The position numbers and the translations under genes are program-made. Of a DNA stretch of 34,825 bases, positions 1,115 to 19,185 are shown piece after piece; position 1 is the first letter of the stretch, and the number at the start of each line of letters is the position of its first letter. The DNA lies in sequence record SRR22947727_5198; one strand, given 5' to 3'. The notes below the pieces were generated by a model. The model saw only the letters and a program-made list of their open reading frames with translations, was not told where the DNA came from and ran no database searches.

Positions 1115-1735
1115 CTATCCAAGGAGGTCTGACACCTTGGCGATGATGCTGTGGTGGATCTCTTCGATTGGCAGTTCACCATTCACCACCAAGAAACGCT
1201 CGGGCTCGGCTGCGGCTAGCGAGAGGTAGCTCTCTCGAACCCGGGTGTGGAAATCTTCGGCTTCGGCTTCAAGCCGGTCGTACTCTCGCTCGGTTTGAGC
1301 TTGACGAGCTTTCGCCACAGAGGCTGGAACATCGAGCAACACCGTGAGGTTAGGCATAAGGCGCTCCGTTGCCCAGAGCGAGAGTTCACGAACTTCCTCG
1401 GGGTCCAACACCCGACCGGCACCTTGGTAGGCGACTGAGGAGTCCAGGTAGCGATCTTGGACCACCACCTCACCGCGCTCCAGTGCTGGGCGAACAAGAC
1501 TGTGGATGTGGTGGGAACGATCTGCCGCATAGAGCAGTGCTTCCGCACGAGGAGCGATGAAGCCTTTGCGGTGCAACACAATGTTGCGAAGCTCAACACC
1601 GAGATCGGTACCCCCGGGCTCCCTGGTCAATACGACGGTCTGGCCTTGGGATTCAAGCCACGTCGCCAGAAGGTTGATCTGGGTCGTTTTCCCCGACCCG
1701 TCTCCCCCCTCGAAGGTGATGAACAGCCCAGTCAT
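1115..1735 (-). CDS. tmk: Thymidylate kinase (dTMP kinase)
   Basis: FITFEGGDGSGKTTQ P-loop, TREPGGT and DRY..SS.AYQG motifs. Confidence 0.97.
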   Translation of the reverse strand: MTGLFITFEGGDGSGKTTQINLLATWLESQGQTVVLTREPGGTDLGVELRNIVLHRKGFIAPRAEALLYAADRSHHIHSLVRPALERGEVVVQDRYLDSSVAYQGAGRVLDPEEVRELSLWATERLMPNLTVLLDVPASVAKARQAQTEREYDRLEAEAEDFHTRVRESYLSLAAAEPERFLVVNGELPIEEIHHSIIAKVSDLLG

Positions 1736-1737
1736 CG

Positions 1738-4527
1738 TTAGTCCTCGTCTCGAATCTCTACCGTCTTCGGGGTCTTAGACGAGGGATTCCCTGACTTGGA
1801 TGCCGGCGCTTTCTTCTTCGCCACAGTTTTTGTTGCCGTCTTCTTCGCCGCAGGCTTCTTCTTGGCGGGGGCTTTCTTCTTCGCTGTCCGCTTGGGGGCA
1901 GGCCCCTTGGCGCGCTTATCCGCGATCAACTGAACGGCTGCCTCGAAATCGAGGTCATCCAGGGACATTCCTCGAGGCACCGTGGCGTTGATTTCGCCAT
2001 CGGTCACATAGGGGCCAAAGCGACCATCCTTGAGAAGAATCGGCTTACCGCTCACGGGATCAGCCTCGAAAGTTTTCAACGCTGACGCTTGACGACGACC
2101 ACCGTATTTGGGCTCTGCGTAACGCTGGAGAGCACCCTCCACATCAATCTCGAAGATCTTCTCTTCACTATCGAGCGACCGGGTGTCTGTTCCCTTCTTC
2201 AGGTAGGGACCATAGCGACCGTTCTGAGCGGTGATCATGTCGCCCGATTCTGGGTCAACACCAACCTCTCGAGGAAGCGCGAGGAGACGCAAGGCGGTCT
2301 CCAAATCGATGGTCTCGATCTCCATTGACTGGAACAGTGATGCTGTCTTGGGTTTGGGCGCAGTCGCCTTTTTCTTTTTCGGCGCATCCTCGGCGGGAGC
2401 CTCAGGCTCGGGCAGAACCTCGGTCACATACGGGCCAAAACGGCCCTTCTTGGCCACAATCTCGAGACCGGTGGCGGAGTCAACTCCCAACACACGGTCC
2501 ACCACAGGAGGCTCATCGGCAATCTGCTGGGCCTTCTCGGGAGTGAGCTCATCGGGGGCTAACTCGAGTGGCAAATTGACGTTCTTGACTTCACCAGTGT
2601 CCGGATCCGTCACTTCCAGGAATGGACCGTACTTTCCGACCCGGAGGTTGATAGTCGGGCTGATCTCAAGAGTGTTGAGGGCTCTCGCGTCAATTTCATC
2701 TGTTGCCGCAAGCGCCACCTCTTTGAGGCCTCGGTGCTCGCCATCGCCAAAGTAGAACTTGTGCAGCCACTCGCCGCGCTGGGTTTCACCACGCGCAATG
2801 CGGTCGAGGTCTTCTTCCAGTTGAGCGGTGAAGTCGTAGTCCACGAGGTCGGAGAAGCGCTCCTGGAGGAGACGCGTGACAGGGAATGCGATCCACTGGG
2901 GGACAAGAGCCGTTCCACGGCGTACGACATAGTTGCGGTCGATAATCACCTGAATGATCGAGGCGTAGGTGGAGGGGCGACCGATGCCTTTCTCCTCTAG
3001 CGCCTTCACCAAACTCGCTTCGGTGTATCGAGCGGGAGGTTGAGTGTTGTGTGATTTTGCCTCCACCTCCGAAATGGTGATGGGGTCCCCCACGCTGAGG
3101 GGAGGCAAGATCGCGTCGGCTTCTTTTTCTGGCTCAGCGGTCTCGTCGTCTTTGCTCTCCTGGTATGCCTGGAGGAATCCACGCTCACTCAGGATTGTTC
3201 CTGATGCACTCAGGGTGGCTTTCTGGAAACTCACACCCTCCATCGAAGGAAGTGGCTGAGCTTCGATGGTGATGGAGACAGTTTCACCCTTGGCGTCCAC
3301 CATTTGGCTTGCCACCGTGCGCTTCCAAATCAGGTCATACAGCTTGAGTTCATCTGAGCGCAGAACCGAGGCGAGTTCACTGGGAGAGGCGAAGGTATCC
3401 CCCGCGGGTCGCACCGCTTCGTGGGCTTCTTGGGAGTTCTTGGACTTGCCTTTATACAGGCGGGGTTCGCTCGGCACAGATCCCGCGCCATAGAGAGCCT
3501 GTGCTGCGGCCCTGGCCGCGGTGATGGCCTGCGCGGACAGCGACACCGAGTCGGTACGCATATACGTGATATGACCGTTCTCATACAGACCCTGGGCAAT
3601 ACTCATCGTCTGTGACGCGGAATACCGAAGCTTTCGTCCTGCTTCTTGCTGGAGAGTGGAGGTGGTGAAAGGCGCTGCGGGCCGTCTCGTGTAAGGCTTC
3701 GGCTCCACTTTGGTGACCTTGGGGGACGCCTCCGGCGATTCCAGCACGGCAGCAACAGCTGCAGCTTCTGCTTCGCCGAGGAGCACAGCATCTCCCTCGA
3801 GCACACCGAGATCACTGAAGTCTCGACCACTAGCCACTCGACGGTCGTCCAACCTGGTGAGACTGACGGCAAAGCTCTCGCCCGACGCTTTATGTCCCGT
3901 GGCATCAATGTCCGCGTAGGTCGCAGAGACGAAAGCGCGCCGTTCAAGTTCGCGATCGACAATCAGTTTGAGGGCTGGGGATTGCACACGCCCCGCTGAT
4001 TTAGCTCCGCTGACACGACGCCATAGGACAGGCGACACTTCGAAACCGTACAAACGGTCAAGAATTCGGCGAGTTTCTTGGGCGTCCACCAGAGCAACGT
4101 CCAAGTCTCTGGTGGAATCTGAGGCCTTCTGAATACTCTCCGGTGTGATCTCGTGGAACACCATCCGGCGGACAGGAACCTTGGGCTTCAGCACCTCCAG
4201 AAGGTGCCACGCGATGGCCTCACCCTCGCGGTCCTCATCTGTCGCGAGCAGAATCTCGGAAGCATTCTTGGCGGCGCGTTTCAAATCCGCGACCGTCTTC
4301 TTGCCTCGATCGGTCGTCACATAGAACGGCTCGAAATCATTCTCAATATCAATCGCAAATTTTCCTGCGGGGCTCTTTTTCACCTCGGGGGGAAGATCGC
4401 GGGGGTGCGCGAGGTCTCGCACGTGACCCACAGAGGCCATCACCTCATAGTCATCGCCCAAGTACTTACCAATGGTTTTTGCCTTGGCAGGGGACTCGAC
4501 AATGACGAGTTTCTTAGTGGTGGCCAC
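1738..4527 (-). CDS. topA: DNA topoisomerase I (type IA), actinobacterial form with Lys/Ala-rich C-terminal tail
   Basis: LVIVESPAKAKTI, ATDEDREGEAI, SAGRVQS, HITYMRTDS (catalytic Tyr) and repeated G(R/K)(F/Y)GP(Y/F) C-terminal modules. Start moved to GTG 4527, which follows AAGGAG. Confidence 0.97.
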   Translation of the reverse strand: MATTKKLVIVESPAKAKTIGKYLGDDYEVMASVGHVRDLAHPRDLPPEVKKSPAGKFAIDIENDFEPFYVTTDRGKKTVADLKRAAKNASEILLATDEDREGEAIAWHLLEVLKPKVPVRRMVFHEITPESIQKASDSTRDLDVALVDAQETRRILDRLYGFEVSPVLWRRVSGAKSAGRVQSPALKLIVDRELERRAFVSATYADIDATGHKASGESFAVSLTRLDDRRVASGRDFSDLGVLEGDAVLLGEAEAAAVAAVLESPEASPKVTKVEPKPYTRRPAAPFTTSTLQQEAGRKLRYSASQTMSIAQGLYENGHITYMRTDSVSLSAQAITAARAAAQALYGAGSVPSEPRLYKGKSKNSQEAHEAVRPAGDTFASPSELASVLRSDELKLYDLIWKRTVASQMVDAKGETVSITIEAQPLPSMEGVSFQKATLSASGTILSERGFLQAYQESKDDETAEPEKEADAILPPLSVGDPITISEVEAKSHNTQPPARYTEASLVKALEEKGIGRPSTYASIIQVIIDRNYVVRRGTALVPQWIAFPVTRLLQERFSDLVDYDFTAQLEEDLDRIARGETQRGEWLHKFYFGDGEHRGLKEVALAATDEIDARALNTLEISPTINLRVGKYGPFLEVTDPDTGEVKNVNLPLELAPDELTPEKAQQIADEPPVVDRVLGVDSATGLEIVAKKGRFGPYVTEVLPEPEAPAEDAPKKKKATAPKPKTASLFQSMEIETIDLETALRLLALPREVGVDPESGDMITAQNGRYGPYLKKGTDTRSLDSEEKIFEIDVEGALQRYAEPKYGGRRQASALKTFEADPVSGKPILLKDGRFGPYVTDGEINATVPRGMSLDDLDFEAAVQLIADKRAKGPAPKRTAKKKAPAKKKPAAKKTATKTVAKKKAPASKSGNPSSKTPKTVEIRDED

Positions 4528-13788: not shown

Positions 13789-13865
<77 letters not shown>

Positions 13866-15414: not shown

Positions 15415-16704
15415 CTAGGAAAGCTCGGGATAGAGCGGCCACGCCTGGGTCAACTGCGCCACTCGCCCCTGCAAAGCCGAGATATCGGGGTTTGGCATCA
15501 GAGTGTGAGCGATGATGTCCGCCACCTCGGTGAATTCCGTCTCACCGAATCCTCGTGTCGCGAGCGCTGGGGTTCCGATGCGCACACCGGAGGTTACCAT
15601 GGGGGGCCTGGGGTCAAAGGGAACCGCGTTACGGTTCACGGTGATTCCCACGTGGTGCAGAAGGTCCTCGGCTTGCTGCCCGTCCACGGGCGAGTTCCGC
15701 AAGTCCACGAGGGCAAGGTGAACATCAGTTCCGCCGGTCAGAACGTCCACTCCGGCAGCCTTGGTGTCATCCTGGACCAAGCGCTCGGCCAGGAGCTTCG
15801 CACCCTGGATGGTTCTCTCTTGACGATCCCGGAACTCAGGAGTCATGGCGAGCTTGAAGGCGACCGCTTTTGCCGCGATCACGTGCATGAGAGGTCCACC
15901 CTGCTGTCCCGGGAACACCGCGGAATTCAGCTTCTTAGCCAGTGACTCATCCCGGCTGAGAATAATTCCAGAGCGAGGACCACCGAGGGTCTTGTGAACA
16001 GTGGTCGAGACGACGTCTGCGTGAGGGATGGGCGAGGGGTGCAGACCGGCTGCGACCAAGCCAGCAAAGTGCGCCATGTCGACCCAGAGCTTTGCTCCCA
16101 CCTCGTCGGCGATGGCACGGAACGCGGCAAAGTCAGTGTGACGGGGATACGCCGACCAGCCTGCAATCAAGACGGTGGGCTTGTGCTCAAGGGCCTTGTC
16201 ACGGACTTTGTCCATGTCAATCAAGAAGGTGTCGGGCTCTACGCCATAGGAGGTGGCGTTGTAGACCTTGCCGGAGAAGTTGAGCTTCATACCGTGAGTC
16301 AGGTGACCACCGTGAGCCAATTCAAGACCCAAGATGGTGTCGCCGGGCTGCGCGAGTGCGTGCAATACAGCGGCACTGGCGCTCGCACCCGAGTGAGGCT
16401 GGACGTTCGCATACGCGGCACCGAAGAGTTCTTTTGCCCGCTCAATCGCGAGGTTCTCGGCGATGTCCACGAATTCGCAGCCGCCGTAGTAGCGCTTACC
16501 GGGGTAGCCCTCGGCATATTTGTTCGTGAGCACGCTGCCTTGGGCTTCCAAGACTGCGTGGGGCACAAAGTTTTCGCTGGCAATCATTTCCAGCGTGCCG
16601 CGCTGGCGACCAAGTTCCTTATCCAGGACATCCTGAATCTCGGGGTCGATCTCGGCGAGCGTTGCAGTAAAAGCGTCGAGTGCTGGGGTTGTTGTGGGGT
16701 TCAC
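15415..16704 (-). CDS. glyA: Serine hydroxymethyltransferase
   Basis: [23 protein letters not shown] and [14 protein letters not shown] (PLP lysine). Confidence 0.98.
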
Positions 16705-16744
16705 GGGGCTCTCCCTTGGTTACACGGATATGGAATTGTCGTGT

Positions 16745-16817
16745 CAGCCCAGGCGTACGGCCAGCACGCTTCCTTACGCTCCCCGATGGTTATCCATCAT
16801 TACGCCAGTTGCGTAGC
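16745..16817 (-). ncRNA. ZMP/ZTP (pfl motif) riboswitch aptamer upstream of glyA
   Basis: Minus strand UACGC-AACUGGCG-UAAU-GAUGG-AUAA-CCAUC-GGGGA-GCGUA...GCCGUACGCCUGGGC gives P1, P2, the conserved ACUGGCG and GGGGAGC, and a P3 able to pseudoknot (GGCG/CGCC). TAGACT -10 at 16826-16821. Confidence 0.92.
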
Positions 16818-16881
16818 TCCAGTCTAACCGAGGTCGCTGGGAGCACCCCGGTGGACCACGCGCAAACCCTAAGCTAGGGGG

Positions 16882-17739
16882 GTGCCAAGCTCTCCTTCTC
16901 ACTTTGTGGTGACGTTCGTCTGTGATGACAAGCCCGGTATTGTTCACGCCGTCAGTGGGGCAATCGTCGAAGCCCACGGCAACATCACCGAGTCTCAACA
17001 GTTCTCCTCGGAGGACACCGGGCGCTTCTTTATGCGAGTGCAGGTGGAAACCACCTCGGACTATGACAGCTTCCAGGCCGCTCTTGCCCCTGTGATTGAG
17101 CGCTATGACATGACCGCAGAGATCAACACCGTGGGTCGACCCCTTCGAACTCTGATCCTTGCCTCAAGCGCCGGCCACTGTCTGACCGACCTTCTGGTGC
17201 GCCAACGAGATGGTCACCTCACAATTGATATTCCCCAGGTTCTTTCCAACCACGACGCTCTCGAGCCCGTCGCACAGTTCTATGGCGTTCCCTTCCGCGC
17301 ACTTCCGATTACGGACCAGGCCAGCAAAGCTCAGTTTGAGGCGGAAGTCCTCGCTCTGGTGGAGAAGCATGACATTGAGTTGGTCGTGTTGGCGCGGTAC
17401 ATGCAGATCGTGAGCCCTGAACTGTGCACAGCACTCGAGGGCCGCATGATTAATATCCACCATTCGTTCCTCCCCGGCTTCAAGGGAGCGAGCCCTTATC
17501 GCCAAGCCCACGAACGGGGTGTGAAACTCATCGGCGCGACCGCACACTTTGTGACGACGGAACTCGATGAGGGACCCATCATTGAGCAGAATGTGGTGCG
17601 GGTGGATCACTCTCACTCTGCCGAAGAGCTTCGGGCTATCGGCCAGGATGAGGAATCTCGCACCCTGACCCAGGCCGTGCGGTGGTTTGCTGAGCACCGA
17701 ATCTTGCTCGATGGTGTGCGCACCATCATCTTTAAATGA
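16882..17739 (+). CDS. purU: Formyltetrahydrofolate deformylase
   Basis: N-terminal ACT domain, VLARYMQI, INIHHSFLPGFKGA.PY.QA and LDEGPIIEQ; TAAGCT 6 nt before the GTG (leaderless). Confidence 0.96.
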   Translation: MPSSPSHFVVTFVCDDKPGIVHAVSGAIVEAHGNITESQQFSSEDTGRFFMRVQVETTSDYDSFQAALAPVIERYDMTAEINTVGRPLRTLILASSAGHCLTDLLVRQRDGHLTIDIPQVLSNHDALEPVAQFYGVPFRALPITDQASKAQFEAEVLALVEKHDIELVVLARYMQIVSPELCTALEGRMINIHHSFLPGFKGASPYRQAHERGVKLIGATAHFVTTELDEGPIIEQNVVRVDHSHSAEELRAIGQDEESRTLTQAVRWFAEHRILLDGVRTIIFK

Positions 17740-17769
17740 CTCATCCCTAGGCCGTGGCCTAGGGATGAG
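17740..17769. terminator. Probable bidirectional terminator hairpin
   Basis: CTCATCCCTAGGCC-GT-GGCCTAGGGATGAG is a perfect 14-bp inverted repeat between convergent purU and the small Cys-rich gene; no long U-tract. Confidence 0.75.
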
Positions 17770-17784
17770 AGAGTCAGCTAAGGA

Positions 17785-17901
17785 CTAGGCGCACTTGCAA
17801 AGCTCGTCTGGTCCGAAACCAGCCAAAGCCTGTTCAATGTGCTCTCCGCAACCGGTCCAGGTGACCTTGCTGCAGCGGTTACAACGCGCTGGGCTACACA
17901 C
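17785..17901 (-). CDS. Small cysteine-rich protein, 38 aa, putative metal-binding
   Basis: GTG...TAG encodes MCSPARCNRCSKVTWTGCGEHIEQALAGFGPDELCKCA. AAGGAG lies 7 nt upstream, with a promoter before it and a terminator after it. Confidence 0.85.
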   Translation of the reverse strand: MCSPARCNRCSKVTWTGCGEHIEQALAGFGPDELCKCA

Positions 17902-17941
17902 GATGGTTCTCCTTGAGTGTTGAAGTAATCACGACTCTCAG

Positions 17942-17970
17942 AGTATATACCCCTGGGGGTATTTTGGCTA
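17942..17970 (-). promoter_or_regulatory. Sigma70-type promoter with a CsoR/RicR/CstR-family operator in the spacer
   Basis: TAGCCA (17970-17965), 17 bp, TATACT (17947-17942); palindrome ATACCCC-TG-GGGGTAT at 17947-17962. Confidence 0.8.
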
Positions 17971-19185
17971 CTAGCCGAGTCGTGCCTTCAGATTCTCATC
18001 CAAGGTGGCCAAGAAGTCCTCGGTGGTCTGCCACTTCTGGTCGCCACCGACGAGCATCGCGAGGTCCTTCGTCATGGCTCCAGACTCCACAGTCTTGATG
18101 ACCACGTCCTCCAGCGTCTGGGCGAAATCAATCAGGGCCTGGTTCGAGTCGAGCTTCCCGCGGTGCATTAGACCCCGTGTCCAGGCGAAGATCGAGGCAA
18201 TGGGGTTTGTCGAGGTGGGGTTGCCCTTCTGGTGCTCGCGGTAGTGACGTGTCACCGTTCCGTGAGCTGCCTCCGCCTCGACAATTGCGCCGTCAGGAGT
18301 GGTGAGCACACTGGTCATCAGGCCGAGAGATCCAAACCCTTGGGCCACCGTGTCGGACTGGACGTCACCGTCGTAGTTCTTGGTAGCCCAGACGTAGCCA
18401 CCCTCCCACTTGAGGGCAGCTGCCACCATGTCATCGATGAGGCGGTGCTCATACGTGATGCCGGCCTTCTCGAACTTGTCCTGGAACTCTGCTTCGAAGA
18501 TCTCCTGGAAAATGTCCTTGAAACGACCGTCATAGGCCTTCAAGATGGTGTTCTTGGTTGAGAGGTAGACCGGGTATCTGCGGTTCAGACCGTAGTTCAA
18601 GGATGCACGAGCGAAATCGCGGATGGAGGCGTCGAGGTTATACATCGCCATGGCAACACCGCCACCGGGTGCCTCAAAGACCTCGAAGCTCTGGGCTTCG
18701 CCACCGTCTTTCGGCTGGAAGCTAATGGTGAGCGTTCCCGGACCCTCGAACACAAAGTCCGTGGCGCGGTACTGATCACCAAACGCGTGACGTCCAACAA
18801 TGATGGGCTTGTTCCAGCCGGGAACGAGCCGGGGGATGTTGGAGATGATGATCGGCTCGCGGAAAATCACGCCGCCGAGGATGTTGCGGATGGTCCCGTT
18901 GGGGCTGCGCCACATCTTCTTGAGACCAAACTCTTCCACGCGGGCTTCGTCGGGAGTGATGGTGGCGCACTTGACGCCGACTCCGTGCTTCTGAATGGCA
19001 TGAGCAGCGTCGATGGTGATCTGGTCGTCCGTCTCGTCACGCTTCTCGATTCCCAGGTCGTAGTACTCCAGGGTGAGATCGAGGTAGGGGTGGATCAGGC
19101 GGTCCTTGATGGCCTGCCAAATAATACGTGTCATTTCGTCGCCATCGAGCTCTACGACGACGCCATCAACCTTGATCTTTTCCAC
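17971..19185 (-). CDS. icd: NADP-dependent isocitrate dehydrogenase (eukaryote-like homodimeric type)
   Basis: [44 protein letters not shown] and [14 protein letters not shown] 19185 follows GAAGGGA. Confidence 0.97.

Follow-up and report, generated by a model that had tools for sequence, protein, structure and literature searches.

A 38-aa Cys6His protein gene behind icd as a probable member of an actinobacterial persulfide stress regulon

We analysed a 34,825-nt stretch of DNA from sequence record SRR22947727_5198 (the window), which carries between icd and purU a small gene for a 38-aa Cys6His protein, here called the peptide. Probably the gene stands on its own under a repressor, and its small product belongs to the persulfide stress regulon of a small-genome actinobacterium.

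The transcription unit between icd and purU

The peptide gene (MCSPARCNRCSKVTWTGCGEHIEQALAGFGPDELCKCA) occupies 17785-17901 on the minus strand, as taken from the list of open reading frames (ORFs) and their translation; it starts with GTG (17899-17901), not ATG, and stops with TAG (17785-17787). Direct reading of the sequence places a Shine-Dalgarno element, AAGGAG, at 17909-17914 on the same strand, 7 nt from the GTG. Farther upstream, a promoter scan finds the sigma-70-type promoter TAGCCA-17-TATACT (17942-17970, minus strand), with its -35 element at 17965-17970, its -10 element at 17942-17947 and a spacer of 17 nt. The promoter begins one base past the icd stop codon (17971-17973), and the scan of 17600-18100 yielded 1 promoter-like site, against 0.2 ± 0.5 in shuffles.

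Inside the promoter lies a perfect 16-nt palindrome, ATACCCCCAGGGGTAT (17947-17962, no strand assigned), which spans the spacer and the first base of the -10 element and is a candidate operator for a CsoR-family repressor of the CstR/ScCsoR type. It is the sole match in the window to ATACC-N6-GGTAT with up to one mismatch allowed. Shuffled windows gave a mean of 0.15 matches and 14 of 100 had at least one, so that the palindrome by itself lacks significance; what gives it weight is the comparison with other genomes below.

RNA folding finds a strong hairpin at 17737-17776 (no strand assigned), between the stop of the peptide gene and that of purU (-29.8 kcal/mol, z -4.5, with an equally good fold in none of 200 shuffles). 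Because it abuts the stop of the convergent purU gene (17737-17739), the hairpin would serve both genes, and it is probably a bidirectional terminator lacking a T-tract: a T-run is absent, and the scan for the terminator consensus found none. No Rfam family matches over the peptide-gene region. An earlier note on this DNA, made from its letters alone, had proposed promoter, ribosome-binding site, ORF and downstream hairpin as one transcription unit; all four are in place, and the unit is conserved. The same note saw no repressor gene in the window, and tblastn likewise found none there, which makes the peptide gene a satellite member of its regulon.

Contigs assembled from RNA libraries hint that the peptide gene is transcribed, lying over the ORF in three of four runs (three studies). 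An exact 318-nt contig of run X8 (17831-18148) joins the 3′ end of icd to the 5′ part of the ORF, and a 3.1-kb contig of run X3 extends over the whole region. From a related strain (X12, record 9) comes a 190-nt contig over the whole ORF that ends ~4-7 nt downstream of the -10 element, a weak hint. Over 17817-17957 no contig came from RNA run X1, which is no evidence of absence.

The protein family and its predicted fold

A 49-aa homologue and a family alignment served as queries in homologue searches. A HMMER pass over 1.84 billion cluster representatives returned 376 proteins (50%-identity clusters) at E ≤ 0.001, and a profile search placed 1011 90%-identity clusters in the family, from 1032 candidates. 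Nearly all of the retrieved homologous proteins (177 of 183) have the motif C-x4-C-x2-C-x7-C-x2-H. In a 135-sequence alignment C2, C7, C10, G17, C18, G19 and H21 are invariant; conservation is 90% or higher at M1, K12, T14, W15 and C35. As last ligand, 149 of the 177 motif-bearing proteins have C37 and 12 have H38; the remaining 16 are mostly truncated or frameshifted. C2 follows M or V in 175 of these 177 proteins, so the domain always begins at the initiator codon, and the N-terminal extensions found in some gene calls of the family look like mis-calls. Differences from 11 orthologues number 109, 92 and 194 at codon positions 1, 2 and 3, a third-position excess. Since clusters are conserved, the motif is retained, the codon positions are biased and the predicted fold is confident, the 38-aa ORF is, judged from sequence, a real gene and part of a complete conserved transcription unit.

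Names among the matches listed are "hypothetical" or "uncharacterized", save one truncated JGI label, "phage terminase large subunit GpA-like". The named family records are from actinobacterial genera, one basidiomycete and one bdelloid rotifer. Eukaryotic members (P0144, P0146 and P0265) represent the rotifer Adineta ricciae, the basidiomycete Tulasnella calospora and one thioredoxin-domain fusion, P0146 being the homologue fused to thioredoxin. Searches of Pfam and NCBIfam with the peptide and four homologues gave sub-threshold matches only (E up to 10), the PDB gave no match to the peptide, and Atlas look-ups of it met unnamed clusters only, the nearest named one being YyzF (0.76-0.77). We found no description of the peptide in the literature, where supplementary neighbourhood tables (PMC8643695, PMC7533328) might list the gene as hypothetical. 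By these comparisons the peptide is a member of a large family outside Pfam and NCBIfam that is without characterisation, in agreement with the earlier note, which had known of no characterised family for it.

The nearest annotated models are YyzF (PF14116) and TIGR04129 "CxxH/CxxC" of Bacillota, which match weakly and locally over C18-G-x-H21 and the following helix; both sides are tiny and uncharacterised. Scores stay well below the cut-offs (11.5 against 27 bits and 13.8 against 35; for a homologue 14.0 against 27), and YyzF lacks the N-terminal C2/C7/C10 part of the peptide. A further group within the family, 12 of the 177 members (P0050, P0056, P0059, P0084, P0094, P0176 and P0178 among them), has a C-terminal tail ending G-[FIL]-[FIL]-x2-[LF]-F-G-[KR], often with a C-x-G-H variant; possibly it is an amphipathic tag for a membrane or a partner.

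AlphaFold2, given the alignment, models the peptide with a mean pLDDT of 89, placing strands at 3-6 and 13-16 and a helix at 22-25, from which we infer a beta-hairpin followed by a short helix. Fold searches with the model found no structural relatives, and it shows no structural similarity to solved zinc-ribbon, treble-clef or rubredoxin members. The C7-x2-C10 knuckle is placed in the hairpin turn, and C2 and C18 at the open end of the hairpin, beside H21 at the start of the helix. The conserved ligands would be seven: C2, C7, C10, C18, H21, C35 and C37 (or H38). The exchange of Cys37 for His38 is typical of metal ligands, which argues that these residues are metal ligands and not redox thiols alone, and the protein is probably stabilised by metal. 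Seven ligands cannot form two closed four-ligand sites without bridging; the favoured grouping on the model is therefore one closed Zn-type site plus either a three-ligand site or free thiols, Cys2 included. Removal of a Met before Cys is expected from the specificity of methionine aminopeptidase.

A ribosomal protein L36-like zinc ribbon was considered and rejected, with the net charge of the peptide at zero and no Pfam match. A precursor of a RiPP or bacteriocin was likewise rejected: there is no leader, and no modification enzyme is found among the identified neighbours, most neighbouring ORFs being unannotated.

Operator, repressor type and regulon

The nearest genome, G001 (~1.2 Mb, 91% complete), has 74% shared words with the window. 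Its peptide locus is 97-100% identical, with the promoter and the 5′ part of the ORF identical and a peptide match of 97%. G001 has one CsoR-family gene (PF02583, 81 bits), whose product has C36, A61 and C65, that is x-C-x-C with the Cu-ligand His replaced by Ala. In the sections of Fakhoury 2021 that we draw on (PMC8643695), copper sensors of the family are described as x-C-H-C, as in MtCsoR with C36/H61/C65, and persulfide sensors, to which actinomycete cluster 3 with ScCsoR of Streptomyces coelicolor belongs, as x-C-x-C. The residues of the G001 repressor assign it to the CstR/ScCsoR type, which senses persulfide. Immediately upstream of the repressor gene, in the same operon, is a gene for a CoA disulfide reductase fused to a rhodanese (CoADR-rhodanese; Pyr_redox_2, Pyr_redox_dim and Rhodanese domains), whose product shows both catalytic Cys motifs.

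Four good operators of the form ATACCC-N4-GGGTAT are found in G001, each abutting or overlapping a -10-like element: one upstream of the peptide gene, one upstream of the CoADR-rhodanese/repressor operon, one upstream of a gene for a rhodanese lipoprotein and one upstream of a gene for a DUF4395 membrane protein. No operator match falls in the copZ-copA locus of G001. When up to two mismatches are allowed the operator pattern is no commoner in G001 than its reversed control (19 of each). Two such 2-mismatch matches, C14:30159 and C14:36110, are intragenic, one in an FtsK/EccC-like gene and the other in that for ATP synthase beta, and were therefore treated as chance.

Two loci show further detail around these genes. 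In L003, from G001, a perfect operator (1136-1149) stands ~10 nt before the likely start of the DUF4395 ORF (from ~1160, plus strand), with psuG divergent, which places DUF4395 in the persulfide regulon. In L006 a gene for an MpaB/Lcp-type oxygenase (1555-2493, plus strand) and the CoADR-rhodanese operon diverge from a common intergenic region, which contains the operator of that operon.

Co-occurrence was examined in a family sample of 201 genomes. The peptide is found in 86 of them, across 54 of 101 genera. Matches to the G001 repressor are bimodal, either at E ≤ 1e-16 or at ~1e-10 and weaker, and the strong class is present in 91 of the 201. Both peptide and repressor type occur in 80 genomes, the peptide only in 6, the repressor type only in 11 and neither in 104, counts that overstate the case, since the genomes are related and not independent. 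Two of the six peptide-only genomes, G182 (locus L016) and G167, have peptide copies with in-frame stops (TGA, TAG). Such stops in genomes lacking the repressor are consistent with decay after loss of the regulator.

We retrieved 58 loci of 3 kb, 30 from the family sample and 28 from a phylum sample, holding 59 peptide genes. An operator with arms ATACCC-N4-GGGTAT is found within 120 nt upstream of 28 of the 59, and 17 others lie within ~1.5 kb of cstR, CoADR or rhodanese genes, several of them right behind a rhodanese domain or cstR. In the 178.6 kb covered, 29 of 39 operator-regex matches fall within the 126-nt zones upstream of peptide genes. Read-through gene calls show the peptide adjoining CoADR, TauE, rhodanese and DUF2892 genes, and the peptide gene stands behind icd in 8 of the 30 family loci. 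The phylum sample places the family in at least 26 of 301 genomes and at least 11 families, with large genomes under-scored (22 candidates each).

Two variants of the upstream region were seen. Seven of the 28 operators (L047, L052, L053, L056, L059, L063 and L064) lie over the start codon, as GATACCCTATGGGGT followed by ATG (offset -13), which points to a leaderless mRNA or a roadblock at the translation start. In L045, L051 and L055, from other actinobacterial families, the peptide gene is preceded by another palindrome (TTGTCCGTACAAT or ATGTCCGGACAT) and not by ATACCC-N4-GGGTAT; this suggests that a different regulator may control the family there.

The published ScCsoR site is ATACCn6GGTAT (PMC7533328), and ATACCCCCAGGGGTAT fits this form. 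The earlier note had read the palindrome as a CsoR-family operator, a prediction now supported by that likeness and by its recurrence upstream of the 28 homologues and of the G001 sulfur genes. As a check on its proposal the note had asked whether the operator is conserved together with the Cys/His positions and the TW-x-GCG-x-H core; this co-conservation is likewise supported. The regulatory system itself is of known kind. Taken together, these data make it likely that the peptide gene belongs to a reactive-sulfur (persulfide) stress regulon and not to a copper system.

Possible roles of the peptide

The proposed circuit would work as follows. A tetrameric x-C-x-C CsoR-family repressor, encoded elsewhere in the genome, would sit on ATACCCCCAGGGGTAT, as its family leads one to expect, and when bound would occlude the -10 element and spacer of the peptide promoter. 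Persulfides or polysulfides would, again by analogy with the family, cross-link the Cys pair of the repressor, which would then leave the DNA and derepress the promoter. Shared operators link the peptide gene to the CoADR-rhodanese (CoA-persulfide-reductase-like)/repressor operon, the rhodanese lipoprotein and the DUF4395 membrane protein. In the peptide, the second site (three ligands or free thiols, Cys2 included) might take sulfane sulfur or sulfide from rhodanese domains and so serve as acceptor, relay or buffer. The role of sulfur acceptor is conjecture on our part; the context favours persulfide buffering, one of the options raised by the earlier note.

Two of the closest known systems share much of the logic of this circuit. 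What we say of the cited papers applies to parts of them. ScCsoR (SCO0620) of S. coelicolor is likewise an actinomycete CsoR-family repressor that senses sulfane sulfur through two Cys, acting at ATACC-N6-GGTAT palindromes at the promoters of targets that include rhodanese-type genes (Lu et al. 2020, PMC7533328). TauE and rhodanese of that circuit have counterparts adjoining homologues of the peptide. However, the ScCsoR circuit as presented in those parts has four genes (PDO-rhodanese, TauE, rhodanese and repressor) and no small Cys-rich protein, whereas here CoADR-rhodanese stands in place of PDO and the gene for the peptide lies apart from the others, as a satellite behind icd. The CstR regulon of Enterococcus faecalis (RhdA, RhdB and CoAPR; PMC9405070, PMC8643695) places an x-C-x-C repressor over a CoADR-rhodanese fusion and single-domain rhodaneses, as here, with derepression by persulfides by the logic that we propose. 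It differs in belonging to Firmicutes, with a repressor of CsoR cluster 10 instead of actinomycete cluster 3, and these parts of the papers describe no Cys-rich mini-protein or DUF4395 member.

The actinomycete cluster 3 persulfide sensors are described as largely uncharacterised (PMC8643695, in part), and for rhodaneses under CstR control neither donors nor acceptors of sulfur are known, according to PMC9405070 (in part). Because the peptide tracks the repressor almost one-to-one in the 201 genomes and often lies right behind a rhodanese domain, it readily suggests itself as the acceptor or relay still missing there, or as what connects metal handling with sulfide stress. It would be a core regulon member that standard annotation has skipped, and is short enough for synthesis, NMR and native mass spectrometry (MS), so that the question is directly testable.

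Several observations, besides the inflated co-occurrence counts, weigh against this interpretation. Fourteen of the 59 peptide genes have neither an operator nor a sulfur-gene neighbour in their 3-kb loci, some of them carrying the different palindrome. The repressor and the three other operators were read from G001, not from the genome to which the window belongs. The RNA contigs give neither strand nor start and may reflect DNA carry-over, and the contig that bridges icd and the peptide gene may come from read-through. The ligand grouping is reasoned from secondary structure, for a fold that has no structural relative. Homologues of the family are present in eukaryotes, which have no CstR, so the basic activity of the protein may not be confined to the handling of persulfides.

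A wider reading, which we offer tentatively and think rather unlikely as a whole, would make the family a new class of mini-metalloproteins with an obligatory N-terminal Cys, in which a closed Cys/His site is joined by an open three-ligand site that binds sulfide or persulfide directly. The protein would hence be a dedicated carrier or sink of sulfane sulfur or sulfide, which the actinobacterial CstR regulon has taken into service and which fungi and rotifers employ as well.

The main rival to sulfur acceptance is a metal-centred protein of the persulfide response, either a zinc buffer or chaperone for Zn that sulfide or persulfide displaces from thiolate sites, or a small Fe or Fe-S redox carrier for CoADR-rhodanese. 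We regard it as unlikely, with regulon membership fitting it equally well. The seven conserved Cys/His ligands with Cys/His exchange at the last one, the C-x2-C knuckle in the hairpin turn and the C-x2-H ahead of the helix would all suit such a protein, and the thioredoxin-fused P0146 suggests a redox partner. However, the frequent place of the gene right behind rhodanese domains points to sulfur transfer, and Pfam, PDB and fold searches gave no likeness to rubredoxin, ferredoxin or known Zn chaperones. The evidence presented here does not separate the metal-centred role from that of sulfur acceptor.

The earlier note had preferred a Cu(I)- or Zn-binding metallothionein in a regulon like that of RicR and MymT, and this part of its proposal did not hold up well. 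In such a regulon the repressor would sense Cu(I), and the peptide would sequester Cu(I) or Zn as MymT does; we now think this improbable. RicR is an x-C-H-C copper sensor, unlike the x-C-x-C repressor of G001. The sole PF02583 repressor of that genome has Ala in place of the Cu-ligand His, the genes sharing its operator are sulfurtransferases and CoADR-rhodanese instead of copA or copZ, and copZ-copA is without an operator; across genomes it is the x-C-x-C repressor type with which the peptide co-occurs. Some features do recall a metallothionein, namely a Cys content of 16% and weak HMA matches of two homologues, which at E 0.12-0.16 and 13 bits stay under the cut-off of 24.8, but no metallothionein model of Pfam or NCBIfam matched at E up to 10, and the peptide has a fixed fold with conserved G, W, K and T, not the low complexity of a metallothionein. 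The operator shape is common to Cu-sensing CsoR/RicR repressors (PMC7533328, in part). MymT of mycobacteria is a known metallothionein linked to a copper repressor, and its gene is likewise one for a small Cys-rich protein under a CsoR-family repressor with a similar palindrome (PMC11672702, in part). The fixed fold, seven conserved ligands and sulfur-enzyme neighbours of the peptide family set it apart from MymT.

Least tenable, and very improbable, is that the ORF makes no functional protein but is a Cys-rich leader or attenuator, or a chance ORF in a regulated small RNA: Cys-rich leaderless short ORFs have been reported as attenuators in mycobacteria (bioRxiv 10.1101/834739) and short ORFs are frequent by chance (67 of at least 25 aa in 5 kb), but there is no same-strand gene downstream, the ORF running into the hairpin and convergent purU, and the non-Cys residues K12, T14, W15, G17, G19 and H21 are conserved over hundreds of clusters including eukaryotes, which together exclude a leader, while the excess of third-codon-position substitutions and the lack of an Rfam match also speak against it.

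Two RNA features lie elsewhere in the window. A ZMP/ZTP riboswitch (pfl motif) at 16740-16822 on the minus strand (55.4 bits against a gathering score of 39) is just upstream of a glyA-like gene (15415-16704, minus strand) and divergent from purU. A tRNA gene is found at 13789-13862 on the plus strand (Rfam RF00005, 64 bits).
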